Shown piece after piece: positions 825 to 14,086 of a DNA stretch of 37,759 nt (position 1 is its first letter; every line of letters starts with the position of its first letter). Both the position numbers and the translations under genes were made by a program. The notes beneath the pieces were generated by a model, which saw only the letters and a list, made by a program, of their open reading frames with translations, did no database searches and was not told where the DNA came from. This DNA is from Prochlorococcus sp. AG-455-E15 (GTDB lineage: Bacteria; Cyanobacteriota; Cyanobacteriia; PCC-6307; Cyanobiaceae): the NCBI GenBank assembly GCA_003212115.1, contig QCQS01000001.1:1-37759 (forward strand). The letters run 5' to 3'.

Positions 825-2150
825 ATGAAACTCTTCCAACAAATGTTGGTTGTTGGTGCTTCTATGAGTTTATTAACTCCTATTGTTGCACAAGCATCCG
901 ATATTAATATTGAAGAAATGAATGACTACGTTCGTAGCAGCAAATCTTCAAAAAAATTTAATAGCAAAACTTTTACTAACGAGGTTAGTGGCAAAATTGT
1001 AAATCTAAATGGTCGTTTTGACGGTTTAGAGGTACAACAAAATGGTTTAGAAGCTGGCAGCTTTTCAGATACAACTACACTTGATGGTAGTGCTGTTTTT
1101 GCTGCTGCTGCAATAGATGGTGCAACTAAGGTAAATTCATCTGCAACAGAGAATCTGCAGACGATGTATACCTACACCATGAATTTAAATACAAGTTTTA
1201 CTGGTGACGATAATCTTTATGTTCGCTTAAGAACAGGTAATGGTAAGGTCACCGGCGGGTCTTTCTACGAAAAGACTGCTTTCTATCATACAGATACTTA
1301 TTCAGGTGGTGTTGATGATTTTAAAGTTGATAAAATCTGGTATACAACTCCAATTGGTAGTAGTGAAAAATGGACAGCAACAATTGGTCCAAAGATTGAA
1401 AACTATTATATGTACGCAGCACCTGTCTCAATTTATAGACCAGGATTTCATAAGGCTTTCAAGTTAGGTAGTCTTAGTGGTGCTTTCGGTGCGAGTACAG
1501 CTACTGGAGGTGGTGTTAAATATGTTGGGGATAATGGATTAGCTTTTAGTACTAATTTAGTTTCCAAAGGAGCCTCTGGTTCATCTGGTTTATTAACTAA
1601 TGAAGATGAACATAAGTGGGATACAATGCTCGCTTATACACAAGATCAATATCATGTTTCTCTTTCATTATCTCAGCAACATGAAGATTGGTCTTCATTT
1701 AGTTACTACGCAACTGATGCTGCAGTAGCTGTTGAGGAAGACTCTAATGCCACAGCTTATGCGGCAAGAGCATACTGGAGGCCAGAGGAATCAGGAAGTG
1801 CGATGCCTGAAATATCTGTTGGTTACGATATCATCAATCTTGAAGGGCAAACAGGGAACAGTGTTAAAGAAGCAAGTAGTTACTTTGTTGGTTTAGGCTG
1901 GCCTGATATGTTCCAAGACTCTGATTACATCGGAATAGGTTTTGGTCAGCCGTTAAAGGTTGATGAAACAGCTAATGGTGCAGCAGCTGATGATGCAGGC
2001 TTAAGTCCTTTCTTATGGGAAGTAAGTTACTCATTCAAACCAAATGATTCAATAACAGTGATTCCTGCTGTATTCGGTGGAACTGATATCCAAAGTTCAA
2101 CTGATCAAGACATCTTTGGAGCAGCAGTAACTACTAAGTTTAAATTCTAA
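825..2150 (+). CDS. som: Cyanobacterial outer-membrane porin (Som/OprB-like)
   Basis: Signal peptide, FSDTTTLDG and LNTSFTGDDNLYVRLRTGN motifs, C-terminal TTKFKF beta-barrel signature. Confidence 0.9.
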   Translation: MKLFQQMLVVGASMSLLTPIVAQASDINIEEMNDYVRSSKSSKKFNSKTFTNEVSGKIVNLNGRFDGLEVQQNGLEAGSFSDTTTLDGSAVFAAAAIDGATKVNSSATENLQTMYTYTMNLNTSFTGDDNLYVRLRTGNGKVTGGSFYEKTAFYHTDTYSGGVDDFKVDKIWYTTPIGSSEKWTATIGPKIENYYMYAAPVSIYRPGFHKAFKLGSLSGAFGASTATGGGVKYVGDNGLAFSTNLVSKGASGSSGLLTNEDEHKWDTMLAYTQDQYHVSLSLSQQHEDWSSFSYYATDAAVAVEEDSNATAYAARAYWRPEESGSAMPEISVGYDIINLEGQTGNSVKEASSYFVGLGWPDMFQDSDYIGIGFGQPLKVDETANGAAADDAGLSPFLWEVSYSFKPNDSITVIPAVFGGTDIQSSTDQDIFGAAVTTKFKF

Positions 2151-2172
2151 ATTTAAATTCTAAACTTAATAT

Positions 2173-2201
2173 AAAAAGGGGCGCTTAAGTGCCCCTTTTT
2201 T
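2173..2201. terminator. Bidirectional intrinsic terminator
   Basis: AAAAAGGGGCGC-TTAA-GTGCCCCTTTTTT hairpin between convergent genes. Confidence 0.85.
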
Positions 2202-2243
2202 CTTTTAAAAATTCGTAACTGTAATTCTAGAGTGGTTTAGAGT

Positions 2244-2483
2244 TTACCAACAATTTTCTCCTTCTCCAATAGGAACACATACACTTGCTTTCGCCGCTTC
2301 ATCCGCTAATTTTTGAGCTTGTTCATCAAGAATGAAATCAGCTTCTATAGACATATCTGTATTCCATTCTTTAAGTCCTCCTAAGTCACTTTCTTCTGCT
2401 TTTAAGCTTGAGCTCCCAGTGGAGGTCAGAGCTACTACGCTAGTTGTTGCTAAGAATAATGCAATGGAAGTTTTTTTGTTCAT
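2244..2483 (-). CDS. Small secreted hypothetical protein with a C-terminal Cys pair (CVPIGEGENCW)
   Basis: 79-aa ORF with an N-terminal signal peptide. Confidence 0.7.
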   Translation of the reverse strand: MNKKTSIALFLATTSVVALTSTGSSSLKAEESDLGGLKEWNTDMSIEADFILDEQAQKLADEAAKASVCVPIGEGENCW

Positions 2484-2569
2484 TCAATTAACCTTACTTA
2501 GTACATAATAATTAGTTTGGGCTAATCTTTCTAATCGATGTATAAAATGATGCTTGTTAAATTGCTTAT

Positions 2570-3235
2570 TCAATTGGCTAGTCTTCTTAAAAAATTTGAA
2601 TATGATTTATAAATTAGATCAACTTCGTCTGATCTGCCATATTTAGCAAGTAATGATCTTGCCGCAGCATCAAGATCAAATAAATATTCTCTTTCTTCAA
2701 TGCTTTTTACATAGCTTTCAATCCAACCAATAAATACTAATCTCTCACCATCAATAACTTTTTCTACTGAATGTAAATATGTACTTGGGTAAATTATTAT
2801 CTCTCCTTCATCAAGTTTAAATTTTTCTTCTGAGTTTAAACCCTCTATTGTTAAAGCGCCTCCTTCATATTTTTTTTTACAATTTAAAAAGACTGTAAAA
2901 GATAAATCTGCTCTTCCAGACGACATAAAAGCATTATCAATATGACGTCCATATTTCATCCCACTTGTTGATTTTGAAAAGATTGTTCCATGAATTTTTT
3001 TTGGTAAAGCAAAGCTCTTGATTAGCTCATTACTAAGGATTTTTTTTGTAATCAATCCAGAAAACTTTATTGATAAATCTGAATCTCTTCTCAGTTGTAA
3101 ATTATTTTTTTCCTTTGCGGCATGATTTCCAGCAGTAAGCTTGCCATCTTCCCATGCTAGTGATTCTTTTTCTAAATTTTTTCTGAGGATTTCTAATTCT
3201 TCAGAGTTCAATAGTTTATGAGTTAAATAATTCAT
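2570..3235 (-). CDS. piuC: PKHD-type Fe(II)/2-oxoglutarate-dependent hydroxylase (PiuC/YbiX family)
   Basis: YGRHIDN (HxD), ADLSFTVFL, YEGG, YPSTYLHSV and GERLV motifs. Confidence 0.9.
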   Translation of the reverse strand: MNYLTHKLLNSEELEILRKNLEKESLAWEDGKLTAGNHAAKEKNNLQLRRDSDLSIKFSGLITKKILSNELIKSFALPKKIHGTIFSKSTSGMKYGRHIDNAFMSSGRADLSFTVFLNCKKKYEGGALTIEGLNSEEKFKLDEGEIIIYPSTYLHSVEKVIDGERLVFIGWIESYVKSIEEREYLFDLDAAARSLLAKYGRSDEVDLIYKSYSNFLRRLAN

Positions 3236-3337
3236 AATAGATATAAAAAATGATACAAATTGATGTATAGAAATTCTCTTTATGAGGCCTTGCTATGAAG
3301 ATAGATATAAAGTAACCATAGATACTATTTTGTAAAA

Positions 3338-4360
3338 GTGCAAAATCTAAAAAAACTACTTTACTCAGCATTTACATGTACATTTTTGCTAAACGTTAAT
3401 ATATCTGCTAATTCAACAGAAAAAGAAGTCAAAGTTTTCTCAGGGAGACATTACAACACAGATAGAATTATTTATAAAAAATTTGCAGAAGAAACTGGTA
3501 TAAAAGTTCGACTAATCGAAGCTGCTGGCATCTCCTTAATAGAAAGGTTAAAAAGAGAAGGAAAAAATTCTCAGGCTGATTTAATATTGCTAGTAGATGC
3601 CGCAAGAATTACTAATGCAGCCAAAGCTGGATTACTTCAATCAATAGAATCTTCGAATTTAGAAAATGATGTACCTGTTGGATTAAAAGATCCAAATAAG
3701 GAATGGTATGCATTAACAAGAAGAGTAAGAGTTATGGTCGCTAATCCAAAAGTTGTAGATATAAATAAAATTAACGATTATACAGATTTAGCTGATCCAT
3801 CCTTAAAGGGTAAAGTGTGTCTAAGAAATAGAAAAAGTCCATATAATCAATCTTTAGTTGCCAATCAGATAGTTAATAAAGGTGAATCAGAAACTAAAGC
3901 TTGGTTAAGTGGAATGATTTCTAATGTTTCCCAACCATTCTTCCCAGGCGATATTTCCATAATTAGAGCAGTTTCTAAGAAAAAATGTGGAGTAGGAATC
4001 GTTAATCATTATTATGTCGCTAGAATGCTATCTGGAGTAAACGGAAGAAGAGATGCTTTATATTCGAAAAGAACAAAAGTCATTACACCTAATCCTGCAC
4101 ATGTAAATATTAGTGCTGGTGGTGTAGCTAAATATGCAACAAATAAAGCTGAAGCAATTAAGCTTCTCGAATTCTTAGCATCTCCAGAAGGAAGTAAGGG
4201 TTTAGCTGCACCAACTTTTGAGCATCCTTTAAAGGAAGTTAATCAGAATGAAATAGTAAAGAATTTTGGAGAGTTTATACCTGATAATGTCACTGTGGAA
4301 GACCTTGGAGAAAAAAATTCTTTAGCTATTGAATTGATGAAAGAAGCAGGGTGGAATTAA
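3338..4360 (+). CDS. futA: Fe(III) ABC transporter periplasmic binding protein FutA/IdiA
   Basis: SGRHY, ADLILLVDAAR, YNQSL, NHYYVAR and HVNISAGG motifs. Confidence 0.92.
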   Translation: MQNLKKLLYSAFTCTFLLNVNISANSTEKEVKVFSGRHYNTDRIIYKKFAEETGIKVRLIEAAGISLIERLKREGKNSQADLILLVDAARITNAAKAGLLQSIESSNLENDVPVGLKDPNKEWYALTRRVRVMVANPKVVDINKINDYTDLADPSLKGKVCLRNRKSPYNQSLVANQIVNKGESETKAWLSGMISNVSQPFFPGDISIIRAVSKKKCGVGIVNHYYVARMLSGVNGRRDALYSKRTKVITPNPAHVNISAGGVAKYATNKAEAIKLLEFLASPEGSKGLAAPTFEHPLKEVNQNEIVKNFGEFIPDNVTVEDLGEKNSLAIELMKEAGWN

Positions 4361-4423: not shown

Positions 4424-4508
4424 GGAGAGGTGGCTGAGTGGTCGAAAGCGAACGATTCGAAATCGTTTAATAGGAAACTATTCGTGGGTTCGAATCCCAC
4501 CCTCTCCG
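4424..4508 (+). tRNA. tRNA-Ser(CGA)
   Basis: Acceptor stem GGAGAGG/CCTCTCC, anticodon arm AACGA-TT[CGA]AA-TCGTT, long variable arm, T-arm GGTTCGAATCC, discriminator G; CCA not encoded. Confidence 0.97.
4498..4508 (+). repeat. attL core (3' end of tRNA-Ser)
   Basis: CACCCTCTCCG, identical to 13829-13839. Confidence 0.85.
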
Positions 4509-4632
4509 GATATTTACTCAGACAGAACGTAGTCAGGGATAGTCAAATTGTCCAAAATGACTGGTATCACAGTGAAAATCAGTGAGTCACCATAGTCAGA
4601 CACACCCAAACACTATCACAAATAATCTGATG

Positions 4633-4676
4633 GTGTCAGGGATGTGTCAGGGATTTCAAGATTCGGTGTCAGGGAT
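4633..4676 (+). repeat. Left integrase arm-type repeats, GTGTCAGGGAT x3
   Basis: Copies at 4633-4643, 4644-4654 and 4666-4676, plus a partial GTCAGGGAT at 4532-4540. Confidence 0.8.
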
Positions 4677-4677
4677 T

Positions 4678-5181
4678 TTAGAAGAGAATTTCTTCAGTTT
4701 CTTTCCTCACAAATTTTGGTTTATAAAATTCAGTATCAGTATTTCTATAGAAATCTCTAAATTTTTTCTTACCTCTTTTTACTTTTTCTAAAAGTCTTAA
4801 ACTCTCAGGAATAGTCATCTGATTTCCGATACTAATCAGATTTTCTTCTCCATCAGGAGAAGGAAGTTCAAGGACATGGGAATCATCTTTTTTATCCTGT
4901 TTAATTTTTTTTATATCTACAAAGTCACCTTTATTATTTTTAATTCGACAGATTTTCTTATTTGATATTTTATTTTTCTTATTTGATATTTTTCTCTTGG
5001 AATTACCCTCAATTAGTAACTGTAAGTGTGGATAATCTTCTTCGTAAAATTCATCAACTCCATCATAATAAGTAGGATTATTGTTAATAAACTCTGCAAA
5101 TGTAAGATTCTCTTCTAATCTTTTTTGTTTTAGAAAGACATCTTTTACCATATCCATCTTTCTACTAATTGAACTTTTCAT
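4678..5181 (-). CDS. Hypothetical protein (element)
   Basis: 167-aa ORF; start overlaps the upstream stop (ATGA); a ~21-nt tandem duplication encodes KISNKKNKISNKK. Confidence 0.65.
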   Translation of the reverse strand: MKSSISRKMDMVKDVFLKQKRLEENLTFAEFINNNPTYYDGVDEFYEEDYPHLQLLIEGNSKRKISNKKNKISNKKICRIKNNKGDFVDIKKIKQDKKDDSHVLELPSPDGEENLISIGNQMTIPESLRLLEKVKRGKKKFRDFYRNTDTEFYKPKFVRKETEEILF

Positions 5182-5324
5182 AATGGTTTTCTCCCTGTTC
5201 TTTTCATCTCTGTATAAAGATTATTCACCAAAGTAGAAACAAAAGAATTGAGATTAACCCCTTGTTTCTTACTTAGTTCCATCAACATTTGATAGTCGAT
5301 ATTATTTAAAGTGACATTTTTCAT
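5178..5324 (-). CDS. Small ribbon-helix-helix-like protein (48 aa, not in ORF track)
   Basis: Hand-translated MKNVTLNNIDYQMLMELSKKQGVNLNSFVSTLVNNLYTEMKRTGRKPL; Arc/CopG-like pattern; its stop overlaps the next start. Confidence 0.6.
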   Translation of the reverse strand: MKNVTLNNIDYQMLMELSKKQGVNLNSFVSTLVNNLYTEMKRTGRKPL

Positions 5325-5333
5325 GGTTAATAA

Positions 5334-5513
5334 TTAAATTGCGAGTAATTGTTCTTTAAGTTCTTTCTTAATTAGTCTCTTAATTGCACTACTTCTAGTG
5401 ATGTGATTGTCACAACAGTATTCATCCCAACGTCTTGCAAGTTCTAATTCTCTTGAATTAAAAGAGACTGGGAGATTGTGTTGGTTGTTTTTGTTGAGGT
5501 TAATTGTTCGCAT
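5334..5513 (-). CDS. CopG-like ribbon-helix-helix protein (59 aa, not in ORF track)
   Basis: Hand-translated MRTINLNKNNQHNLPVSFNSRELELARRWDEYCCDNHITRSSAIKRLIKKELKEQLLAI; TRSSAIKRLI resembles RHH helix 2. Confidence 0.6.
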   Translation of the reverse strand: MRTINLNKNNQHNLPVSFNSRELELARRWDEYCCDNHITRSSAIKRLIKKELKEQLLAI

Positions 5514-5686
5514 AGTTCTTGTTCTTTAATTAGGTAAAGTTTGCGTTCAGTCTTACGAATTGACTCAATAAGGAAGTCCTCAAACCCAGTCCAGAACGGA
5601 TCTTTCAACTTCTTTTTGTAATCAATTACTAATCCTGATAAATAATTACACTCGTGTTTAAATGACATAAAATCCTCCAAAGTCAC
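5444..5686 (-). CDS. Hypothetical protein (element)
   Basis: 80-aa ORF with GTG start; its 3' end overlaps the RHH ORF by 70 nt. Confidence 0.4.
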   Translation of the reverse strand: MTLEDFMSFKHECNYLSGLVIDYKKKLKDPFWTGFEDFLIESIRKTERKLYLIKEQELCEQLTSTKTTNTISQSLLIQEN

Positions 5687-5802
5687 TGTCCCTTGTGATG
5701 ATGGAGGATTTTATTTAAGAAACGGAATAAAAATAATTCAAGTCACGTCCCCATCTTTTGTATAAATTAATATGTAATTATTTATATTTAAATATTTTTT
5801 AG

Positions 5803-6378
5803 ATGTCGGTAAATGATACAAAATCACATAGAAGTCTAATTTTTAAAGGTGTTGGACTGGAATTTGAAATTAAAAATTTCACTTCCCTAAACAGATTTGA
5901 TAAAGAGACAGGAGAATTACTTGAGAGAGATGAATGGGAATATGAAACTGATGAGGATTTAGATATTGAGGGTGGAGTTACTTATGAATATCTCAAAATT
6001 TATTTAAGAAATAATGATACTGAAGAAGAGATTTGTTTGAATGAAACCAAGACTTTTGAAGAACTAGGAATTGAAGTCATAGGTCTAGAGAACTGTCTTG
6101 AAGAAATGGATAAAGAGGACAAGAAAGAAGTCAAAGAAGAAGTTGATGATAGTCAATTAAAAGATGATGACTATTGGTTAGTAAAAACAGAAAATATGAA
6201 AGGTGTTTGGGGTGAGGTCGATTTTTATGAAGGAGATGAATTTGATATTGAACTTATAACCATCACTGTTAATCGTGATTGTGGAGAAAATCTCTGTAGG
6301 GTTGAATATGATGGTCAGGATTTAGAACCAATGGAACTCAATGGTGGTGGGGTTACAGAGGAAATCCGTCCCCTTTGA
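5803..6378 (+). CDS. Highly acidic hypothetical protein
   Basis: 191 aa; about 56 D/E versus about 20 K/R by hand count; no alanine. Confidence 0.75.
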   Translation: MSVNDTKSHRSLIFKGVGLEFEIKNFTSLNRFDKETGELLERDEWEYETDEDLDIEGGVTYEYLKIYLRNNDTEEEICLNETKTFEELGIEVIGLENCLEEMDKEDKKEVKEEVDDSQLKDDDYWLVKTENMKGVWGEVDFYEGDEFDIELITITVNRDCGENLCRVEYDGQDLEPMELNGGGVTEEIRPL

Positions 6379-6435
6379 TAGAGAGAAGTCTTAGATAGAG
6401 AAGACAAGTATATTTAAAATGACATTTTTAATGAT

Positions 6436-6576
6436 TTAAATCACCGATGAGACTTTAATCACTCTTGCAAATGGGTTTCTCTGGAGTGCAACTTTCTTAC
6501 CATCTTCATAACTGATTGCAGTCACAACCTCTTCATGGACTGTTCCTGAGATCCAAAGACTGACCTTGAGTTTCAT
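6436..6576 (-). CDS. Small conserved-looking protein resembling cyanophage hypotheticals (46 aa, not in ORF track)
   Basis: Hand-translated MKLKVSLWISGTVHEEVVTAISYEDGKKVALQRNPFARVIKVSSVI; has its own promoter, TTGCCA-N16-TATGAT at 6630-6603. Confidence 0.7.
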   Translation of the reverse strand: MKLKVSLWISGTVHEEVVTAISYEDGKKVALQRNPFARVIKVSSVI

Positions 6577-6602
6577 CTTAATTGTTTATATCAATAATTT
6601 AA

Positions 6603-6630
6603 ATCATAGGAATTAATAATAGAATGGCAA
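6603..6630 (-). promoter_or_regulatory. Sigma70-type promoter for the 46-aa ORF
   Basis: TTGCCA (6630-6625), 16-nt spacer, TATGAT (6608-6603). Confidence 0.5.
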
Positions 6631-6780
6631 TTTATTTGATTCTAATTAATAATTAAAACTGATTAATATTAGTTCTTATTTGTTATTAATTACAATCATA
6701 TTAAAGGTAAAAAGAATAAAGAATTAAGACTCAAGTGATACTCTCAGATTCCTTAACTTTGATTGGTATCACTAGGTTCT

Positions 6781-6832
6781 TGTTAAGAAAGTGTTAAGAA
6801 TAATAGACATCCTAGATTCAAATTGCTATAAT
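6781..6832 (+). promoter_or_regulatory. Strong sigma70-type promoter of the cargo operon with an upstream 11-bp-period direct repeat
   Basis: TAGACA (6804-6809)-N17-TATAAT (6827-6832) with an extended -10 TG; TGTTAAGAA repeated at 6781 and 6792. Confidence 0.75.
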
Positions 6833-7003
6833 AAAGACAAGAAAGGGAACAGTGAGAAACTACCCCAGACTTTAACTACTTCGGACAGTTATTAAACCCT
6901 CTTAATTTAAAATTAAGAACCGAGATTGAATAAGAGATTATAAACAATAAAAGTCTTAAATCAATACCAACAACTTAATACTTACATTTTTAATATTTAA
7001 ACT

Positions 7004-7468
7004 ATGAACCAATCATTCAGAGTGGGTTCTGATGTCAGATACCACGAAAGAGATGAAAAATCATATGGAGAACATTACTTCATTGATTATCACGATAACG
7101 ACCACTGTAAGTGGGTAAGAATTCCAAATTGCAGAATTCTTGAAGTCACTGAAATCCTAGAAGACCTTACTGTTCAAGTAATGCAAGGAAAGATTTCAAA
7201 GTTAAGAGTTCAATCTGAAACTTTTCTCTCTCAACTTGCAAAAAATTGGGATGAAGAAGAACAAAGATATGTGAATGATGAGGTCACATGGAGATCCAGA
7301 TTCTTCGATTATTTCAGATACGGAAAATTGGAAGAGAGATTCACAGGTAAATCATTAGACAAGATGAATGAAGAAACATTTGAACAGTGGAAAGAAAGAT
7401 GTTTAAAAGACCCAAAACATCAAAAATCTAATCCGTTCAAAGGAGACCCAAAAAAAAGAGGTAGTTAA
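7004..7468 (+). CDS. Hypothetical protein, first gene of the element cargo operon
   Basis: 154-aa ORF; its stop overlaps the next ATG (TAATG). Confidence 0.75.
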   Translation: MNQSFRVGSDVRYHERDEKSYGEHYFIDYHDNDHCKWVRIPNCRILEVTEILEDLTVQVMQGKISKLRVQSETFLSQLAKNWDEEEQRYVNDEVTWRSRFFDYFRYGKLEERFTGKSLDKMNEETFEQWKERCLKDPKHQKSNPFKGDPKKRGS

Positions 7469-7602
7469 TGTCCTACCTCAAAAAACAAGTCTTGATGAAT
7501 GTTTTCACAGACTTACAGATACTTCATAGAAATTATCTAAAAACTTATGGAGTTTCAAAACCAACATACAAATTTAACCAACAGGATAAAGGTAATGACT
7601 GA
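7468..7602 (+). CDS. Small hypothetical protein (44 aa, not in ORF track)
   Basis: Hand-translated MSYLKKQVLMNVFTDLQILHRNYLKTYGVSKPTYKFNQQDKGND; overlaps both neighbours. Confidence 0.5.
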   Translation: MSYLKKQVLMNVFTDLQILHRNYLKTYGVSKPTYKFNQQDKGND

Positions 7603-7774
7603 ACTTGAACAACAAACTTACGTCTCTACTGTCTTTAACGTCTTGGAAGTTTATCCATACGAAAGAATGAACAGAAAATTTGAGATGTCAATTGATATGT
7701 GTGACTCAATTGATTGGAGTCACGAAGACGAATGTGGAAACATTTTTGATTCCATTATTGGGGAGGTTGGGTAA
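7595..7774 (+). CDS. Small acidic hypothetical protein
   Basis: Track ORF 7547..7774; the ATG at 7595 (MTELEQQ...) fits translational coupling better. Confidence 0.6.
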   Translation: MTELEQQTYVSTVFNVLEVYPYERMNRKFEMSIDMCDSIDWSHEDECGNIFDSIIGEVG

Positions 7775-8043
7775 TGACTAACAGAAACGAGTTTTCACAA
7801 GAAACTCAAGATAAAATTCTTGAGTTTGTGTCTAATCATCTTCTTGATGTATTTGCATTTCACTCTTTTCGTCAGGAACTAAAAAATCTTTTTGAGAATG
7901 AAACAGACAAGACAGTTACTACTCTTGATGGAGAGGAAGTAGGAATCTTGGAATTGTTTGATATATGGGATTTTGAAGGACGAATCAACATGGATCTCAG
8001 ATTCAGTGATGAGGAATGGAAAGTCAAAAGGGAGTGTGTGTGA
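7774..8043 (+). CDS. Acidic hypothetical protein
   Basis: 89 aa; GGAGG RBS; TAATG overlap with the upstream ORF. Confidence 0.7.
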   Translation: MTNRNEFSQETQDKILEFVSNHLLDVFAFHSFRQELKNLFENETDKTVTTLDGEEVGILELFDIWDFEGRINMDLRFSDEEWKVKRECV

Positions 8044-8044
8044 C

Positions 8045-8404
8045 ATGAGTCCTTTATATAATTTCTCTCCTGTAATTCCTGACCATGTGAAAGACCTTGA
8101 GTATCCAACTTTAAAAGAGATGGTTGAGGAGTTTATCCGTCACTATGGAAATACAACAGAAGAAGAACTAGATGACTTTGATTTAGAAGATGCAGTTCAA
8201 AATATTGTTTCTCTGTGGGATGAAAAATTTAAAGATGATCCTTATTGGATTATTAATCCAGATGGAGAATTGGGGTGGTATGGATGTGATGAATTTGAGT
8301 CCTGTTATGAACAACTTATGGAACATTTTGATTATGAATTTCCAGACATAGACGAGTTAATTGAGGAGTTTGACTTCGATGAGAAACTTATCTTCTGTAA
8401 ATAA
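8045..8404 (+). CDS. Highly acidic small protein, candidate DNA mimic
   Basis: Likely start is the ATG at 8045 (MSPLYNF..., 119 aa) right after the upstream stop; about 35 D/E versus about 7 K/R. Confidence 0.7.
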   Translation: MSPLYNFSPVIPDHVKDLEYPTLKEMVEEFIRHYGNTTEEELDDFDLEDAVQNIVSLWDEKFKDDPYWIINPDGELGWYGCDEFESCYEQLMEHFDYEFPDIDELIEEFDFDEKLIFCK

Positions 8405-9104
8405 TGAATTTGTTCTATGTAGAGGGTGGATAGATGAATGGAAGGATGTTGATGATGAAAACGTAAGATACATCATCAAAAATCCAATCTTTAAAAGACC
8501 CAAGAAGAATATTCTTTTTGATGACCTTCCTGTAATTTCTCAAGAAGACCATATAAATCTTTTTCTACCTAAAGATACAGTCAATGAGATGTTGGTTTAT
8601 ACGAGGAGAGATGCACCTCTAGAAAGATATGAAAAAATTCATTTTTCTGGGATTGTCAAAGACTACAAAAGAAAAAATGGTTCTTCTGATTATGGTATTC
8701 ATCCAACTAAATTTTTTAATATCCATTGGGACTTAGAAGAACTTAATAAGGAGGTTAATGAGTATCTAGATAATGTTTCTAATGACAGTAAGAGATTCAC
8801 AACACCAGAAACTCTTTACTTCTTGGAATACAAAATCAAACTCAAACTTCATTCCTATAGAAGAAAATTAGAAGAATCAGGAAATCAACTACCAACTTTT
8901 ATTCATACATTTCGAGACTATGTCACTGTTCTAGAGACTCACTTGGACGGATGTCAAAAACATATCGACTGTATTAGGTGGAGTGTAAGTTCCAGAGAAA
9001 ATCGAAGAACTTACAAAGTTAAAAAGAATTTTTCAAAAGATATACCACCCCTTGAACAAAAATGTCCCAATCTTATTTTTAACCCCGAACTAATTATTAA
9101 TTAA
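8379..9104 (+). CDS. Hypothetical protein
   Basis: Track ORF 8361..9104; the ATG at 8379 follows a GAGGAG RBS. Confidence 0.7.
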   Translation: MRNLSSVNNEFVLCRGWIDEWKDVDDENVRYIIKNPIFKRPKKNILFDDLPVISQEDHINLFLPKDTVNEMLVYTRRDAPLERYEKIHFSGIVKDYKRKNGSSDYGIHPTKFFNIHWDLEELNKEVNEYLDNVSNDSKRFTTPETLYFLEYKIKLKLHSYRRKLEESGNQLPTFIHTFRDYVTVLETHLDGCQKHIDCIRWSVSSRENRRTYKVKKNFSKDIPPLEQKCPNLIFNPELIIN

Positions 9105-9118
9105 TCAAATTTAAATCA

Positions 9119-9412
9119 ATGAAATTTTACAACCAAACAATTCAAAACCTTGTCAGTGATGTAATGGAAAATTCCTATTACCTAGAGACAAAAGGATGTT
9201 ATTGGACAGATTATTTCTGTCGTGATGATGACATCAGTAATCCCAAATTCCAATCTATATGGTCTGAGGGAAGTGGAAGAAATAATGAGAATCTAGATTC
9301 TTTTAATCAACTTGTAAGAGAGGATGCAATTAGATATTTAGAACTATATCCACACAAAATCAGAGAGTTTTCTGATAAAAAATTTAGTCCAAAGAAAAAA
9401 CATTTTAATTAA
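9119..9412 (+). CDS. Hypothetical protein
   Basis: 97-aa ORF in operon orientation. Confidence 0.65.
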   Translation: MKFYNQTIQNLVSDVMENSYYLETKGCYWTDYFCRDDDISNPKFQSIWSEGSGRNNENLDSFNQLVREDAIRYLELYPHKIREFSDKKFSPKKKHFN

Positions 9413-9423
9413 GGAGATTACTA

Positions 9424-9720
9424 ATGAAAAAAACAAATAAAGGATTTGGTCAAATTCCAGAAGGTAGAAAACAATTTCTAGAAAATCTTAGAAATAAAAT
9501 TGTTAATACTTTTTATCCTGATGGAGAACCAGATAACCTTCATATCAAGTTATGGAGAGATAAGGATACAAAAGACTTGTTGTTTGCGGATGTAACCGAT
9601 AGTCCTGAGTTCTGGGATTTACCAAACTACATTGAAAGTGAGGATCAAAAGTCTGATAAATTCAAACTTTTACTTAACTCTATTTCTGAAGAGTCTGAAG
9701 TAAATCTGAAGTGGAGTTGA
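9424..9720 (+). CDS. Hypothetical protein
   Basis: 98 aa; AAGGAG RBS. Confidence 0.7.
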   Translation: MKKTNKGFGQIPEGRKQFLENLRNKIVNTFYPDGEPDNLHIKLWRDKDTKDLLFADVTDSPEFWDLPNYIESEDQKSDKFKLLLNSISEESEVNLKWS

Positions 9721-9724
9721 AGTA

Positions 9725-9886
9725 ATGGGTTCTAGATATTCCGAAAAATGCAATCAAATCTACTATCTAATAAAACTTTATGATGAGTATGAAAAATCAA
9801 CTACTCAAGAAGATAGGGACATAATCCAACATAAGATGTTGTTTTTTATAAGAGATATCAAACTAAATGAAGAGTTTGATTATTAG
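9725..9886 (+). CDS. Small hypothetical protein (53 aa, not in ORF track)
   Basis: Hand-translated MGSRYSEKCNQIYYLIKLYDEYEKSTTQEDRDIIQHKMLFFIRDIKLNEEFDY; GGAG upstream; last ORF before the terminator. Confidence 0.55.
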   Translation: MGSRYSEKCNQIYYLIKLYDEYEKSTTQEDRDIIQHKMLFFIRDIKLNEEFDY

Positions 9887-9930
9887 ATATAAATAATCAC
9901 GGATCATAGAAACATCCAGTTTGATTATGA

Positions 9931-9974
9931 AAAAAAGACTCAGGGATTCTGGACACTTCCTCTGAGTCTTTTTT
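9931..9974. terminator. Bidirectional terminator between the convergent element operons
   Basis: Inverted repeat AAAAAAGACTCAG ... CTGAGTCTTTTTT. Confidence 0.75.
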
Positions 9975-10082
9975 ATTGTCTTGTTAAATCTGAACACGAC
10001 CATGTTTCTAGAAACTGTATGTAAGTTTTCTAAAAAGTAGTTCGTTTCATAAAGATTCCAGGTGGATTTGTTTTGATGTATC

Positions 10083-10235
10083 CTACTTCCCTCTATAAGA
10101 CTGGTCTAATAGAACTGAAACCATTGCAACTACCTTATATTTGTTGATTGATTGTCCTGTTCTCTTCAAATAACTTTCAACCATATTTTTAAAGTGATGA
10201 AGTCTTCTAAAGTATTCTTTATCTCTTTTAATCAT
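10083..10235 (-). CDS. Small basic hypothetical protein (50 aa, not in ORF track)
   Basis: Hand-translated MIKRDKEYFRRLHHFKNMVESYLKRTGQSINKYKVVAMVSVLLDQSYRGK; TGATG overlap with the upstream gene. Confidence 0.5.
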   Translation of the reverse strand: MIKRDKEYFRRLHHFKNMVESYLKRTGQSINKYKVVAMVSVLLDQSYRGK

Positions 10236-10423
10236 CAAATAACTACTGGTTCAATTCTACGTTTTTCATTCAGATTGTGATACTTGAGTAAGTAATCTAA
10301 AGTCCCTGTTCTACTGCGTCTGAGTGACTTCTTGAGAGAGTCAAATTCTTTGAGAGTGTCAAAGTGTCTCTCACCAAAATACATAGTTATAGTCTCTTTT
10401 AATGGTGTTTCTGGATGGTTCAT
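10235..10423 (-). CDS. Small RHH/CopG-like DNA-binding protein
   Basis: 62 aa; beta-strand ETITMYF followed by helices ending RSRTGTLDYLL. Confidence 0.55.
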   Translation of the reverse strand: MNHPETPLKETITMYFGERHFDTLKEFDSLKKSLRRSRTGTLDYLLKYHNLNEKRRIEPVVI

Positions 10424-10429
10424 AATTGA

Positions 10430-11059
10430 TTAAAAAAAAGTATTCAAATGGTCAAAACTGTATATATCTAACTCTGGTCTTCCTACAAAATATTCTTTCA
10501 TTTTTTTCTTTTTATTATCGATGTTGTAATTTGCATGATGACTGTGATTCCAAATTTTTACATCCTCTTCATCTAAATAACAAATATTTTCTAACTGTCT
10601 TTTATCATTTTTTCTTTTCTTCTTCCTACATTCATGAATCATCTCATTAATAAAAAATCTGACCTCCTCTGAATTTTTAAAATATCCTTTTGTATTAGAT
10701 AGATGAGTATGAGTATGAAAAGGTTGGATTAATTTACCTGTCCTTTCATTAACCATGTCACTTCTTTCATGAAAATGAACCATCCCAATACCTTTGGGAA
10801 ACATAGGAATATTTTGACTTCTAGTTGTTCTACCTTTAAGTTTCCAATGGAATTTTCTACGAAAGATTTTATGAAATTCACTGATGTAAGTTTCAACAGT
10901 TTCAATTTTTCTAGGTAGTGTTTTGTATTTAAGAGTTATAAACCATTCGGGTGGATACTCATCCCAAGTCTTCTTTAACCATTCACTTTGAACAGTATTA
11001 ACTTGTTTAGGACTTAAAACTCTCATCCAATCAATATCAACAGTTTCTAGTTGTTTCAT
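10430..11059 (-). CDS. Putative HUH endonuclease / rolling-circle replication initiator
   Basis: WFITLKY (RCR motif I-like), HFHE...PFHTHTHL (HUH motif II), candidate catalytic Tyr in HHANYNIDNK or MKEYF. Confidence 0.55.
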   Translation of the reverse strand: MKQLETVDIDWMRVLSPKQVNTVQSEWLKKTWDEYPPEWFITLKYKTLPRKIETVETYISEFHKIFRRKFHWKLKGRTTRSQNIPMFPKGIGMVHFHERSDMVNERTGKLIQPFHTHTHLSNTKGYFKNSEEVRFFINEMIHECRKKKRKNDKRQLENICYLDEEDVKIWNHSHHANYNIDNKKKKMKEYFVGRPELDIYSFDHLNTFF

Positions 11060-11256
11060 TTAACAGTTTTATTGTTTGATTATTTGTTTATCTGTTTTGT
11101 TAGACACACTGAGTTCGTCTCAAATGCGAGTCTGAGTCATCAATATTTATTTAAGTTGAATGAATCCTCATGACTTACCCATTGGATAAACATCACTCAA
11201 ACAGAATCTCAACTATTTAAATTTGTTTGTTTTAACTATTTAGAAAATATTTATTT

Positions 11257-11868
11257 TCAAGAGGATGTTTTACTTGGAATACAATCTGAAAGTTTTTGAC
11301 TCACTTCCATTACTTCTACTTTTTTGAGAAGTCTATAAACACTATCTCTGTGAATTCCTAATTCTCTACCGATTTGAGTTGCACCTAGTCCTCTTAATTT
11401 GAGTTCCTTAATCTTCTCAACATCGATTCTGGACTTACCACCTTTATAAACACCCTTCTGTTTTGCACGTTGGATTCCTTCCATTTGACGTTCTTTACGA
11501 AGGTTGGTTTCCAATTCTGCAAAAACACCCAACATATCCAAGAAACACTTTGATGTTGCATCTTTAGTTGATATTGGTTGTTCTGTTGCGGTTAGGGTGA
11601 CTCCTCTGTCAGTTAAATCTTTAACTAACATTTGAAGATCCAGTGAATTTCTTGCGATTCTATCGACTCTAGTAAAAACAAATTCATCACCTTCACGAAC
11701 AAACTCAAGACAATTTTTTAATTGTTCTCTTCCTGTTGTGGTTGTTCCACTCATGGATTCAGAAAATATTTTTTGAACCCCATTCTTTTTCAAGATTTCA
11801 ATCTGAGTTTCTAGTCCAGTTTCCTGACTTCCATCAATTGAAGAGACTCTTGCGTATCCAACTTTCAT
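11257..11868 (-). CDS. Small serine recombinase (resolvase/invertase family) with C-terminal HTH
   Basis: GYARVSS catalytic Ser, GREQL, TRVDRIARN, ERQMEGIQRAKQKG and HTH ATQIGRELGIHRDSVYR. Confidence 0.95.
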   Translation of the reverse strand: MKVGYARVSSIDGSQETGLETQIEILKKNGVQKIFSESMSGTTTTGREQLKNCLEFVREGDEFVFTRVDRIARNSLDLQMLVKDLTDRGVTLTATEQPISTKDATSKCFLDMLGVFAELETNLRKERQMEGIQRAKQKGVYKGGKSRIDVEKIKELKLRGLGATQIGRELGIHRDSVYRLLKKVEVMEVSQKLSDCIPSKTSS

Positions 11869-11873
11869 AAAAC

Positions 11874-11974
11874 TGTCGTATCTACATCCAGTTTAGTCGA
11901 AGTGTCGTAAATGGCAATAAATGACCCTAAAACGGCAGTATATTGAGTCAAAAGTGTCGTATTTTCTTAAGACA
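11874..11974. promoter_or_regulatory. Putative res site and resolvase promoter
   Basis: TGTCGTA at 11874, 11903 and 11955; inverted pair TGTCGTA-N6-TAAGACA at 11955-11974; minus-strand promoter TTGCCA (11917-11912)-N16-TAAACT (11895-11890). Confidence 0.65.
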
Positions 11975-12005
11975 TCAAACTATACCGAGATACTACAGAG
12001 AATTT

Positions 12006-13331
12006 TTAAATTTTCATTCCCTGTAGTTCCTTCTCTACTAAATTCATCCCCTGTTTGACCAGTTCTTTATTCCACCACTCCAAGAATTTTTTTCTTTCAT
12101 CTAATTTTTCTGAGAAATCATATGAACCGATTGAACCTTTTTTGTGGTCGGTATGTCCTATCTGTCGAGAAATAATATCTGAATCAAATTTACCAACATC
12201 AACTCCAACAGTAGTTACAACGTGTCTCCAACCATGTGCATTTTGTCTTCCTGTGTAACCTAATTTGCGAAAGAAATCATTGATACGTCCTTTGTCTGGA
12301 TAGGGTCGATTTTTACTGGTTCGGGTTTTAAAAACATATTTCTCATTTCCATTAATCTCTTTCAACTGTTTGATTAAAACTTTCATTTCATCAGTGATAG
12401 GAATCAAATGACTTAATTCACTACCCCTCTTTCTTTTTAGTCCAGATGTTTGAGGAGGTATTACTATCAAATCATTTTCAAAATCAAACCATTCCCATTC
12501 AAGACAACAAACTGCATCCACTCTGATACAAGACAATAAGTAAAACTTCGTTAGTAATCTGTTTAAGACATAAGAATTACAAGAATTATTTTCAATACTT
12601 TCTAAGAATTCTGGAATCTCATCCCAACTTAAATGTGGATGTGGTTTTTTTACATGACCTTGCATTTCTCCAATAACCTTTCGGGTTGCAGGGTTGTATT
12701 CAGTGTCATTCCACCATCCTCTGTCTATTGCATATTCAAAGACTTGTTTTATTAATTTCCGACACTTAGATGCGTGAGTTATTGCAGTCTTTCCATATAC
12801 TCTCCCCCTCTTTATGTGGTCGTGCATTTCGCAGACTAACTCTCTACCCTTACTGGGTAAATAAAAATCACTTATAGGTCTATCTCCATCCAAAAATTCT
12901 AATATCTGATTCAATCTCCCTACACTTGTTTTATAAGAGAGTTCTTTGACTTCTAGTTTGTGATAGTCCAAAAAATTATCAACAACTTCACCTAGAGTCC
13001 TTTCAGTTTTAATCTCTACCTGTCCAAATTTATAAGGATGTCTTCCAGTGGTTTTACAAAATAATTTTTGTTCTAACCAAGTTCTATAAATTCTCTGAAG
13101 ATCCTCTTTGGTTGATATATCCTTACCCCAAACTCCAAATTTAACTTCTACATTCCTACCTTTCCGTCCAAGAGGATAACGTGTATATCCAACAATCCTC
13201 TTACAACTCTCTCCCTTCTCCTCTTTCTTTTCAACTACTACAAACAGTCCAGAACCTTTCTGAAGTGAGTAAAGTTTTCTTGAATCTAAATGAGGGAGTG
13301 AATTTATTTTTGATGTTGATAGAAGTTTCAT
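12006..13331 (-). CDS. Tyrosine integrase (P4-like, with N-terminal arm-binding domain)
   Basis: Catalytic set is intact: CIRVD (R), GLKRK (K), AHGWRH (HxxR), QIGH (H), GSYD (Y); likely start is the ATG at 13331 overlapping the xis stop (ATGA). Confidence 0.93.
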   Translation of the reverse strand: MKLLSTSKINSLPHLDSRKLYSLQKGSGLFVVVEKKEEKGESCKRIVGYTRYPLGRKGRNVEVKFGVWGKDISTKEDLQRIYRTWLEQKLFCKTTGRHPYKFGQVEIKTERTLGEVVDNFLDYHKLEVKELSYKTSVGRLNQILEFLDGDRPISDFYLPSKGRELVCEMHDHIKRGRVYGKTAITHASKCRKLIKQVFEYAIDRGWWNDTEYNPATRKVIGEMQGHVKKPHPHLSWDEIPEFLESIENNSCNSYVLNRLLTKFYLLSCIRVDAVCCLEWEWFDFENDLIVIPPQTSGLKRKRGSELSHLIPITDEMKVLIKQLKEINGNEKYVFKTRTSKNRPYPDKGRINDFFRKLGYTGRQNAHGWRHVVTTVGVDVGKFDSDIISRQIGHTDHKKGSIGSYDFSEKLDERKKFLEWWNKELVKQGMNLVEKELQGMKI

Positions 13332-13552
13332 CTCACACATCCTTTACTAATTTTTTCTAGACACTCAAAAGTTAAATCGGTTCTATATCCGTATCTGTTT
13401 TTAGAAATTTGAACTCTAGGAGGGATGGGAATCTCTTTTGATTTTTCCTTTCTTTTTAAAGATTTCTCAGAAAAATTATATAGTTTGCAAACTTGACTAG
13501 TTGTCAAAAAGAAATGACCCGCAAACTCACTAGGAATAGTGACTTTCTTCAT
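13328..13552 (-). CDS. Excisionase / AlpA-like recombination directionality factor
   Basis: 74 aa; FLTTSQVCKLYNFSEKSL HTH and IPPRVQISKNRYGY wing; coupled to the integrase. Confidence 0.75.
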   Translation of the reverse strand: MKKVTIPSEFAGHFFLTTSQVCKLYNFSEKSLKRKEKSKEIPIPPRVQISKNRYGYRTDLTFECLEKISKGCVR

Positions 13553-13635
13553 ATTGTTAAATTAGAAAATATTTTAAATCTTATAACTTCAGGAGAGAGA
13601 CTTTGACCAGTGCATACTTCCTTTAGATATACTAT

Positions 13636-13664
13636 ATTATAGTCCAAAACGTTCGTCATGTCAA
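13636..13664 (-). promoter_or_regulatory. Perfect-consensus sigma70 promoter for xis-int
   Basis: TTGACA (13664-13659)-N17-TATAAT (13641-13636). Confidence 0.85.
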
Positions 13665-13736
13665 TAGTTTTACAAAGATTTAATCTTTATATTTAAGGAC
13701 ATAAATTACGTTACTAAAGTTACAAGAATTAAATAT

Positions 13737-13758
13737 GTGTCAGGGATGTGTCAGGGAT
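13737..13758 (+). repeat. Right integrase arm-type repeats, GTGTCAGGGAT x2
   Basis: Copies at 13737-13747 and 13748-13758, same sequence and orientation as the left arm. Confidence 0.8.
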
Positions 13759-13778
13759 TTTGGTGAATATTTCTTTTT

Positions 13779-13810
13779 TTACTGGACAAATAGGGTCATT
13801 ACTGGACAAA
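13779..13810 (+). repeat. TTACTGGACAAA direct repeat, candidate excisionase sites
   Basis: Copies at 13779-13790 and 13799-13810, 20 bp apart, between the arm repeats and the att core. Confidence 0.55.
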
Positions 13811-13828
13811 CTAGAGACAACCCACTAA

Positions 13829-13839
13829 CACCCTCTCCG
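13829..13839 (+). repeat. attR core (duplicated tRNA-Ser 3' end)
   Basis: CACCCTCTCCG. Confidence 0.85.
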
Positions 13840-14086
13840 TGCATTTACTCCGAAAGAAAGTAGTCGGAGATATTCAAATCACTTTAGATTAATTTTAAAC
13901 AAGAGAAAAATTGATAATTGTTTAAGTCAAACAAATTCAAAGCTTATTAAATTATTTGTTGGAGTTAAGAAAACTTTATTGAATAAATGAATTTAATTAT
14001 AAAATTCCTAAGAAAATTTACATTTACCAATAAATGCTTGCATAAATAAATTATTAATATTAGTTTCATAATTCAGAATTTCGATT

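Follow-up and report, generated by a model that had tools for sequence, protein, structure and literature searches.

Near-complete loss of the words RGC and GCY, and with them of alanine, from an integrative element of Prochlorococcus

We analysed the first 37,759 nucleotides of contig QCQS01000001.1 of Prochlorococcus sp. AG-455-E15 (GCA_003212115.1), hereafter the window; the host assembly (825 kb, 55% complete) is termed G000, and other L and G numbers denote the loci and genomes compared. A tRNA-integrated element occupies positions 4509–13828 and is a case of restriction-site avoidance carried to a three-base word and to the loss of an amino acid, in an integrative element of the cryptic type. 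The words RGC and GCY (R, purine; Y, pyrimidine) are absent from its genes and rare between them, and its proteins contain hardly any alanine. Selection by sequence-specific DNA-targeting enzymes, all sources taken together, is very probably responsible. That these are restriction-like nucleases, the leading one an RGCY cutter borne by T4-like cyanophages, is our best single reading, for which we see about equal grounds for and against.

Word loss in the element

At 32% G+C, the element has 46 GC dinucleotides where 238 are expected from base composition (rho = 0.19), whereas rho is 1.25 and 1.13 in its two flanks. These sites occur as TGCA (n = 29), TGCG (n = 10), CGCA (n = 3), GGCA (n = 3), and TGCT (n = 1); 42 of them are YGCR, and the other four (6627, 6825, 11914, and 11935), of RGCA type on one strand or the other, are all intergenic, outside the 17 open reading frames (ORFs; 7209 bp in total) that we took as genes. 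These counts agree with the original prediction, made from the sequence alone, of about 46 sites, some 42 of them YGCR, where at least 200 would be expected. AGC/GCT occurs once (162 expected) and GGC/GCC three times (76 expected), and TGCA is not reduced (29 vs. about 28 expected).

Neither A+T content nor codon bias, which had been named as grounds for refutation, explains the loss. As predicted, RGC/GCY is never found in coding sequence: the 17 ORFs contain none, whereas 1000 draws gave 70 ± 7 (minimum 51) when the same proteins were recoded with host codon usage and 40 ± 5 (minimum 23) when the element's own codons were shuffled. Between the genes there are four vs. 37 expected, and GpC is reduced at every codon position (observed/expected 25/90, 6/45, and 4/48). 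Similar ratios in the flanks would also have spoken against the prediction, but RGC resumes at 4448 on the left and 13942 on the right, so that the bias ends at the att cores as foreseen. Among 1535 1-kb segments of G000, all those with a ratio below 0.12 lie inside the element, the next lowest value being 0.49. Restriction-site avoidance, in the sense of a word loss that goes beyond base and codon composition and exceeds that in host core genes, is thus what we observe.

The loss extends to other words. GTAC (14.9 expected) and GTNNAC (24.8 expected) are absent, as are GGNCC, GGNNCC, CCNNGG, and CCGG (8 expected for each, falling to 2.6 for CCGG under a stricter Markov model); CCNGG occurs once (8 expected), and GATC is partially lost (9 vs. 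42.8 expected). The proposed strong selection against RGC/GCY stands at the DNA level, but a single RGC-directed agent does not account for the data, because no fewer than six additional words are purged, in combinations that vary between relatives.

Distribution among relatives

An integrase query found matches in 24 of 285 genomes of the genus, and a profile of the Rep-like gene in five, two of them broken, plus 20 metagenome loci. The two closest integrases (G153 and G210, 41% identity) are devoid of alanine, and the elements that encode them have the same core genes as the one in the window. RGCY is absent from 16 of the 20 metagenome loci and from the two further single-cell genomes whose Rep-like gene is intact; some sites occur in L057, L062, L063, and L065, and those of L057 and L063 lie outside the Rep-like part. 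Relatives of profile A keep TGCA and usually GATC, and the element in the window has this profile with partial GATC loss. In profile B, GpC stands at 37 vs. 812, and GATC, CATG, and GTAC at 0 vs. 124, 79, and 57, respectively. L050 and L053 retain both GATC and CATG, whereas L049 and L029 have neither.

In the metagenome contigs L050, L053, and L055, the right end of the element is joined to its left end through the att core (attP junction), and the 9.4-kb L053 has a 108-base terminal overlap, as in an excised circle, although tandem copies could mimic such junctions and L053 hardly differs from L055. The element was detected, whole or in part, in 19 public runs from ten studies, nearly all labelled marine; contigs of four sequencing runs gave cover across the element, with no informative att joint among the matches listed.

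Alanine loss in the element proteins

Alanine makes up 25 of 2386 residues (1.0%) in the 17 ORFs vs. 5.7% in host ORFs, and every alanine codon of the element is GCA or GCG preceded by a pyrimidine. The predicted counts for single ORFs (none in the 191-aa protein, one each in the 154-, 167-, 209-, and 247-aa proteins, and six in the 441-aa integrase) were right. The word loss affects both strands, all frames, and the DNA between genes, and the alanine loss follows from it; a cause at the level of translation, such as a shortage of tRNA-Ala, was ruled out, as off-frame and intergenic sites have been lost too.

Lysine, glutamate, glutamine, methionine, and tryptophan are the residues whose codons force RGC before alanine. 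None of the 14 nearest integrases in the database has an alanine after any of these, and four have no alanine at all. L028 (2413–3063 and 4241–5521), L029 (2926–4200), and L049 (2049–3317 and 4560–5141) encode tyrosine integrases of full length, L028 and L049 also serine recombinases, that lack alanine entirely and have Cys, Ser, or Gly at conserved motif positions. Six Ala-free integrases from two lineages were compared with 25 others at the four columns where the latter most often have Ala; of the resulting 24 cells, 23 hold Gly, Ser, Cys, or Leu and one holds Val or Thr. The systematic replacement of Ala by Ser, Gly, Cys, or Val, which the original prediction suggested looking for, was thus found for the first three residues, and also for Leu, but hardly for Val. 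In a quick tree (L015, where the longest ORF is not an integrase, was excluded), the Ala-free state falls on two branches, provisionally suggesting two origins.

Selection or mutational decay

Methylated words might also wear away without selection, through deamination of methylcytosine. Consistent with such decay, rho for GT/AC is 0.95 in the element vs. 0.75–0.78 in the flanks, and GC to AC is the commonest change in pairwise comparisons, where counts are small. However, conserved alanines have become Gly, Ser, Cys, or Leu, whereas deamination gives Val or Thr, which argues for selection. GA/TC has risen more (1.36) than GT/AC, exact zeros over tens of kilobases imply that each new site was removed, and S-TIM5 and 14 related contigs encode a C5 methylase, yet keep GpC at 0.85–1.12. 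Moreover, the reported viral motifs are mostly N4-methylcytosine (m4C), which does not decay to T as 5-methylcytosine does. The substitution pattern largely refutes decay, to which we give next to no credence, and we infer that the words were lost by selection and not by mutation.

Graded avoidance in host, phages, and elements

Across mobile DNA, sites are lost in the order RGCY, then the half-sites RGCR/YGCY, then YGCR (Table 1). This is the order expected of CviJI*, the relaxed form of CviJI, which cuts PuGCPy, PyGCPy, and PuGCPu (PMC7019647), and the predicted match between a loss of all GC sites except YGCR and the specificity of this enzyme is borne out by both the published specificity and the observed order.

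Table 1. Observed/expected ratios of GC-containing words in host, phage, and element DNA
Source	RGCY	RGCR/YGCY	YGCR
Host G000	1.31	1.18	1.01
P-SSP7 (T7-like)	1.27	1.17	0.91
S-TIM5	1.13	1.18	0.80
psbD-bearing phage contigs	0.29–0.34	1.1	0.8–0.9
DNA around other integrases of the genus	0.16	1.12	0.8
Element L030	0	0.65	0.89
Rep-bearing loci (n = 4) in other genera of the family	0.02	0.49	0.83
Element in the window	0	0.03	0.70

The screen of cyanophages and related elements that the original prediction had proposed found RGCY to be low in T4-like cyanophages (about 0.2–0.3 of expectation) and zero in most relatives, whereas half-site loss is confined to elements. Among phage loci of at least 7 kb, RGCY is below 0.5 of expectation in 44 of 52 and 61 of 62 (two sets). 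Over 180 kb of P-HM1, RGCY stands at 0.14 and GTAC at 178 vs. 623, and CCGG and GCGC are absent; the same sequence (L198–L206) also has no CCSGG, GGSCC, ATCGAT, TTCGAA, or GTCGAC. P-SSP7 (L149) shows a different, narrower avoidance, with GGCC at 0.09 and AGCT at 1.93 of expectation. In higher-G+C genera of the family, the Rep-like genes of L036–L039 lie in DNA at an intermediate stage of loss, as listed in Table 1. Island DNA downstream of the tRNA is RGCY-poor in 18 of 28 relatives (0–2 vs. 6–11 expected), whereas the DNA upstream is not, and RGCY reaches 1.23 in 48 kb of host core DNA of these 28 relatives.

Phage methylases and nuclease candidates

In Myoviridae-like marine genomes examined by single-molecule real-time sequencing, RGCY is the commonest methylated motif (nine genomes), and CCNGG, GGWCC/GGHCC, GTAC, and CATG, as well as VGCY and GCT, are further motifs; these are rarely shared with prokaryote genomes (PMC8919816). 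One viral genome of 248 kb and 34.9% G+C contains 644 RGCY motif sequences (PMC8919816), by hand arithmetic 0.17–0.34 of expectation, and is thus both methylated and depleted. An N4-type cytosine methylase is encoded by P-HM1 and P-SSM2, is common in viral contigs, and was found in one of the 285 host-genus genomes. In the host assembly G108, L425 (G108:C3:65239-69159) encodes a phage-type N4 methylase (81% identity to that of P-HM1) amid genes that look phage-like by eye, and is possibly DNA of an infecting phage.

Methylation itself could be the hazard, if phage methylases mark words in element DNA and modification-dependent restriction destroys it in the next host. The purged words coincide with the reported viral motifs, including the relaxed VGCY/GCT (PMC8919816), and all 13 residual sites in pooled profile A, several at homologous positions, are RGCA, which lies outside RGCB/VGCY. 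Yet phages would suffer the same restriction and nevertheless keep their methylases, and RGCA is still reduced about 30-fold, so we consider this explanation very unlikely.

Further methylase genes with neighbouring nuclease-like ORFs surround the N4 methylase gene; on contigs of T4-like cyanophages, such pairs occupy a variable region close to a helicase gene (Table 2), and several accompany the loss of one word in the carrier. The carrier of an MjaI-family nuclease (Pfam E 3e-44; one contig) has CTAG at 5/48, a level found in three of 114 background loci. GTNNAC is near zero in two of three contigs with a ThaI-like pair, and CTNAG in both contigs with a methylase cluster that has an adjacent nuclease-like ORF; a methylase cluster without a recognised nuclease accompanies CATG loss, again in two of two. 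These links were found after the fact, each word being that low in only two to three of 114 background loci.

Two nuclease-like families were examined in relation to RGCY. The A4 family (L271/L290) was picked as both first carriers had RGCY at 0.01, and was rejected when it failed a blind test over 40 kb each: RGCY was 0.15 in P-TIM40, 0.12 in S-MbCM6, 0.13 in syn9, 0.09 in S-RIM4, and 0.22 in MS29, vs. 0.14 in the non-carrier P-HM1. The five A4-bearing contigs belong to the same two lineages as the first carriers and are not independent. The fold model was unusable (predicted local distance difference test 38), and a search of 285 host genomes, run without a positive control, gave no match. 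GTAC was seen after the fact to be at 0.09–0.25 in these five phages (L426–L430; background median 0.79), and it stands at 0.74–0.95 in the carriers L271, L305, and L306; a link between the A4 gene and GTAC is possible. In the A5 family (80 loci, L310–L389), RGCY is at most 0.05 in 42% of 57 loci vs. 11% of background, but TCGA shows the same pattern, and both words track phage lineage. Where A5 carriers lack an adjacent methylase, TCGA is mostly at or near zero, as if they were protected by site loss, although some may be cut at contig ends. Phages of the type of S-TIM5, which reportedly methylates all RC, are not supported as a source, as AC is not depleted in the element.

Host enzymes

Of the 285 genomes of the genus, 74 encode a C5 methylase, and the neighbours in 30 such loci include restriction enzymes of the LlaMI, TdeIII, EcoRII-C, HaeII, NgoFVII, and BglI-like families. 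We take the sites of the first three to be CCNGG, GGNCC, and CCWGG, words purged in the element, and host enzymes probably add pressure on CCNGG/GGNCC.

Defence nucleases of this kind, encoded by hosts or their islands and dispersed across the population, might purge all DNA that moves between cells, whether phage or element, with phage methylases as counter-defence. Besides the enzymes themselves, the RGCY-poor island DNA described above fits this account, small plasmids are known to avoid restriction sites by composition (PMC10359461), and cyanophage methylases have been read as counter-defence (PMC12801897). However, host core DNA is not RGCY-poor, neither in G000 nor in the 28 relatives, P-SSP7 infects the same genus and keeps RGCY except for GGCC, and no C5 methylase was found in G000, at its 55% completeness. 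In addition, the sole prokaryote bin with RGCY among 10 of the 11 RGCY rows of PMC8919816 has 224 kb and 0% completeness. We regard host defence as the second-best explanation, though an unlikely one.

A cyanophage nuclease as the proposed leading agent

The reading in which a phage-borne RGCY cutter leads would link these observations as follows. The element integrates at a tRNA, as indicated by its integrase, its att sites, and the junctions of the excised form assembled in relatives; its words have gone from both strands, all frames, and the DNA between genes, with alanine loss following, and judging from the substitutions this would be selection and not mutation. RGCY, the core word, is also avoided by T4-like cyanophages, which carry methylase genes, some of them beside nuclease genes. 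During infection, such a phage would cleave RGCY in unmethylated DNA and, with lower stringency, half-sites, and would shield itself by methylation and partial site loss; the element, with no recognisable methylase of its own, would have to be site-free to survive, excise, and be transmitted. Chloroviruses provide a precedent, with virion-packaged restriction enzymes presumed to degrade host DNA (PMC7019647). Both phage and host sources probably contribute words. In its fullest form, the proposal is that T4-like cyanophages destroy the DNA of hosts and rivals with a changing set of restriction enzymes, foremost a CviJI-like RG^CY cutter, and that site-free elements ride out or exploit lysis, paying with alanine and twice reaching Ala-free integrases; we offer this tentatively and lean slightly against it.

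Several observations weigh against a phage source. No RGCY- or RGC-cutting nuclease was identified among the phage and host candidates: RGCY in the A4 carriers (0.09–0.22) resembles that in the non-carrier P-HM1, and no restriction-endonuclease family was found when 107 ORFs from roughly half of the P-HM1 genome were searched with Pfam. None of 215 viral loci loses half-sites (lowest 0.76), so the purge of half-sites requires relaxed cutting together with phage methylation, both hypothetical. Over 42 palindromic words, the element profile correlates no better with T4-like phages (rho 0.39–0.47) than with P-SSP7 (0.44–0.46) or, in the case of profile A, with the host (0.44). CTAG and CTNAG are purged in some phages and kept in elements, and hosts have their own type II enzymes from the CCNGG and GGNCC families. 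The element was not found among viral contigs in two queries, none of its ORFs has a homologue among the phage loci compared, and no packaging gene was recognised among them. Lastly, the hosts of the methylated viruses are not named in the sections of PMC8919816 considered here.

The element might instead encode its own RGC-specific nuclease or DNA toxin and be immune by lacking the word. The conserved 167-, 191-, and 62-aa proteins belong to no known family, and phage avoidance of RGCY could answer such an enzyme. However, no ORF matched a nuclease or methylase in Pfam and PHROGs (19 ORFs) or in PADLOC and NCBIfam (10 ORFs), relatives with the same core genes purge different words, as seen for GATC and CATG in L050 and L053 vs. 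L049 and L029, and eight words are too many for one enzyme. An agent encoded by the element is thus highly improbable. Of the three candidate agents in the original prediction, phage nucleases are the best supported and host enzymes probably contribute, whereas an element-encoded nuclease finds no support in these four family libraries.

Relation to known systems

The element resembles the cryptic integrative elements and tycheposons of Prochlorococcus (Hackl et al., bioRxiv 10.1101/2020.12.28.424599) in its tyrosine integrase, excisionase (a weak match here), insertion at an island tRNA with a duplicated 3' end, small serine recombinase, variable cargo, and lack of conjugation or capsid genes. 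A psbD 96% identical to that of the Prochlorococcus phage P-HM1 and the G+C content of 32% suggest a high-light Prochlorococcus as host. A possible difference from the published elements is that no primase, helicase, terS, or capsid gene was recognised, a putative HUH Rep being found instead. Searches with Pfam or PHROGs revealed no primase, helicase, or polymerase hallmark gene, and PHROGs (19 ORFs) no terS or capsid gene, the latter also setting the element apart from satellites resembling phage-inducible chromosomal islands. In the main text of the preprint, the words dinucleotide, alanine, methyl, restriction, and codon do not appear, and we found no report of RGC/GpC or alanine loss in these elements in a literature search with limited coverage of subscription papers.

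Like small plasmids and phages that avoid restriction sites (PMC10359461), the element is small mobile DNA with no recognisable methylase that sheds type II words; unlike in plasmids, the ban concerns a three-base word, is carried to zero, removes an amino acid from conserved positions, and has a likely source in phages, not the host. The order of loss, with YGCR spared, parallels chlorovirus CviJI/CviJI*, and chlorovirus systems likewise have adjacent virus-borne methylase and nuclease genes, the methylase being broader than the nuclease (PMC7019647, PMC3526282). CviJI, however, comes from a eukaryotic virus, and its likeness to the cyanophage case is one of specificity only. The purged words recur in the m4C methylomes of marine Myoviridae-like viruses (RGCY, CCNGG/CCWGG, GGWCC/GGHCC, GTAC, CATG), although the parts of PMC8919816 considered here deal with methylation in viruses, describe no motif loss in host elements, and name no nuclease.

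Pressure on a three-base word can thus override protein conservation, yielding natural integrases, resolvases, and Rep-like proteins built from 19 amino acids. The graded loss from host to phages to elements reads out the specificity of a putative marine nuclease and ties it to reported viral methylation motifs. Two questions become testable in cultured phages, namely how T4-like phages discriminate their own from host DNA and how cryptic island elements survive infection, and word depletion could mark links between an element and the phages it has met. If the proposal is true, immunity would be written in sequence composition and not in a gene.

Features of the element and its flanks

Table 2. 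Features of the element in the window and nuclease–methylase pairs of phage contigs
Feature	Position	Strand	Evidence
tRNA-Ser(CGA), integration target, intact	4424..4508	+	ARAGORN
attL core, 11 nt, equal to tRNA 3' end	4498..4508	+	Direct repeat; same core at attP junctions of L050, L053, L055
Whole element, zone without RGCY, GTAC, GTNNAC, GGNCC, CCGG; four RGCA-type sites; GATC lowered	4509..13828		
24-nt repeat, identical copy at 13737–13760; probable integrase arm-type site	4633..4656	+	Both copies flank core in attP junctions
167-aa family-conserved protein, 1 Ala	4678..5181	-	No useful-E family match
48-aa ribbon-helix-helix-like protein	5178..5324	-	Sub-threshold Pfam RHH_3 match, E 0.0014
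59-aa putative small repressor; L029 encodes an identical one	5334..5513	-	Weak PHROG repressor match, E 0.003
191-aa acidic protein, 0 Ala; common to L028, L029, L050, L053	5803..6378	+	
Residual GGCA, intergenic; kept in L050, L053, L052	6627..6628		
Residual TGCT in TG-N-TATAAT, which resembles an extended -10 word, upstream of the cargo ORFs; absent from L050 and L053	6825..6826		Putative promoter role, from sequence
Eight small cargo ORFs (154, 75, 89, 119, 247, 97, 98, 53 aa), 0–1 Ala each; vary among relatives	7004..9886	+	No informative family match
62-aa protein, 0 Ala, conserved beside Rep-like gene	10235..10423	-	
209-aa putative HUH rolling-circle Rep, 1 Ala (invariant FIT, helix-turn-helix, late Tyr)	10430..11059	-	Alignments; ESM Atlas
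Small serine recombinase (resolvase), 7 Ala	11257..11868	-	Pfam Resolvase E 3e-35
Two residual GGCA upstream of resolvase; kept in L053, L055, L061, L029, first also in L050	11914..11936		Likely cis sites
Tyrosine integrase, 441 aa, 6 Ala	12006..13331	-	Pfam Phage_integrase E 1.7e-8; PHROG 1 E 2e-36
74-aa excisionase-like helix-turn-helix protein	13328..13552	-	Pfam HTH_17 E 0.007, PHROG 66 E 0.012, weak
attR core, 11 nt	13829..13839	+	Repeat and attP junctions
Phage nuclease–methylase pairs	L220 2208–2726 with 1456–2211; L221 843–2199; L222 1426–2896; L257 11681–13032; L271 10986–12447		

The 209-aa ORF is a putative HUH rolling-circle Rep. The FIT motif, the helix-turn-helix, and Y178 are invariant in 13 sequences, and in its ESM Atlas cluster REP_ORF2-G2P is assigned to 40% of members (score 0.95). 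A fold search placed RepB of pMV158 at Z 5.0–5.1 among many ties, and there was no Pfam or PDB sequence match. In the integrase, R270, R369, H393, and Y404 are invariant in three aligned sequences, and the 247-aa cargo ORF is common to L050, L053, and L064. That three of the four residual RGCA-type sites are kept in relatives suggests cis functions.

No empty attB identical to the right flank of the window was found among 28 relatives, and this flank looks like the terminus of a different element, which is why attR is placed by the repeat and the attP junctions. Over 51 nt including the core, the DNA to the right of attR (13840–13879) is 82% identical to the element's own left end, and it is also similar to tRNA-adjacent DNA of L416; by this resemblance, it probably represents the terminus of an older element inserted at this tRNA. 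On the other side, beside the tRNA (825–4360), the window contains host genes with normal RGC content, encoding a porin-like protein, a 2OG-Fe(II) oxygenase, and an iron-binding-like protein.

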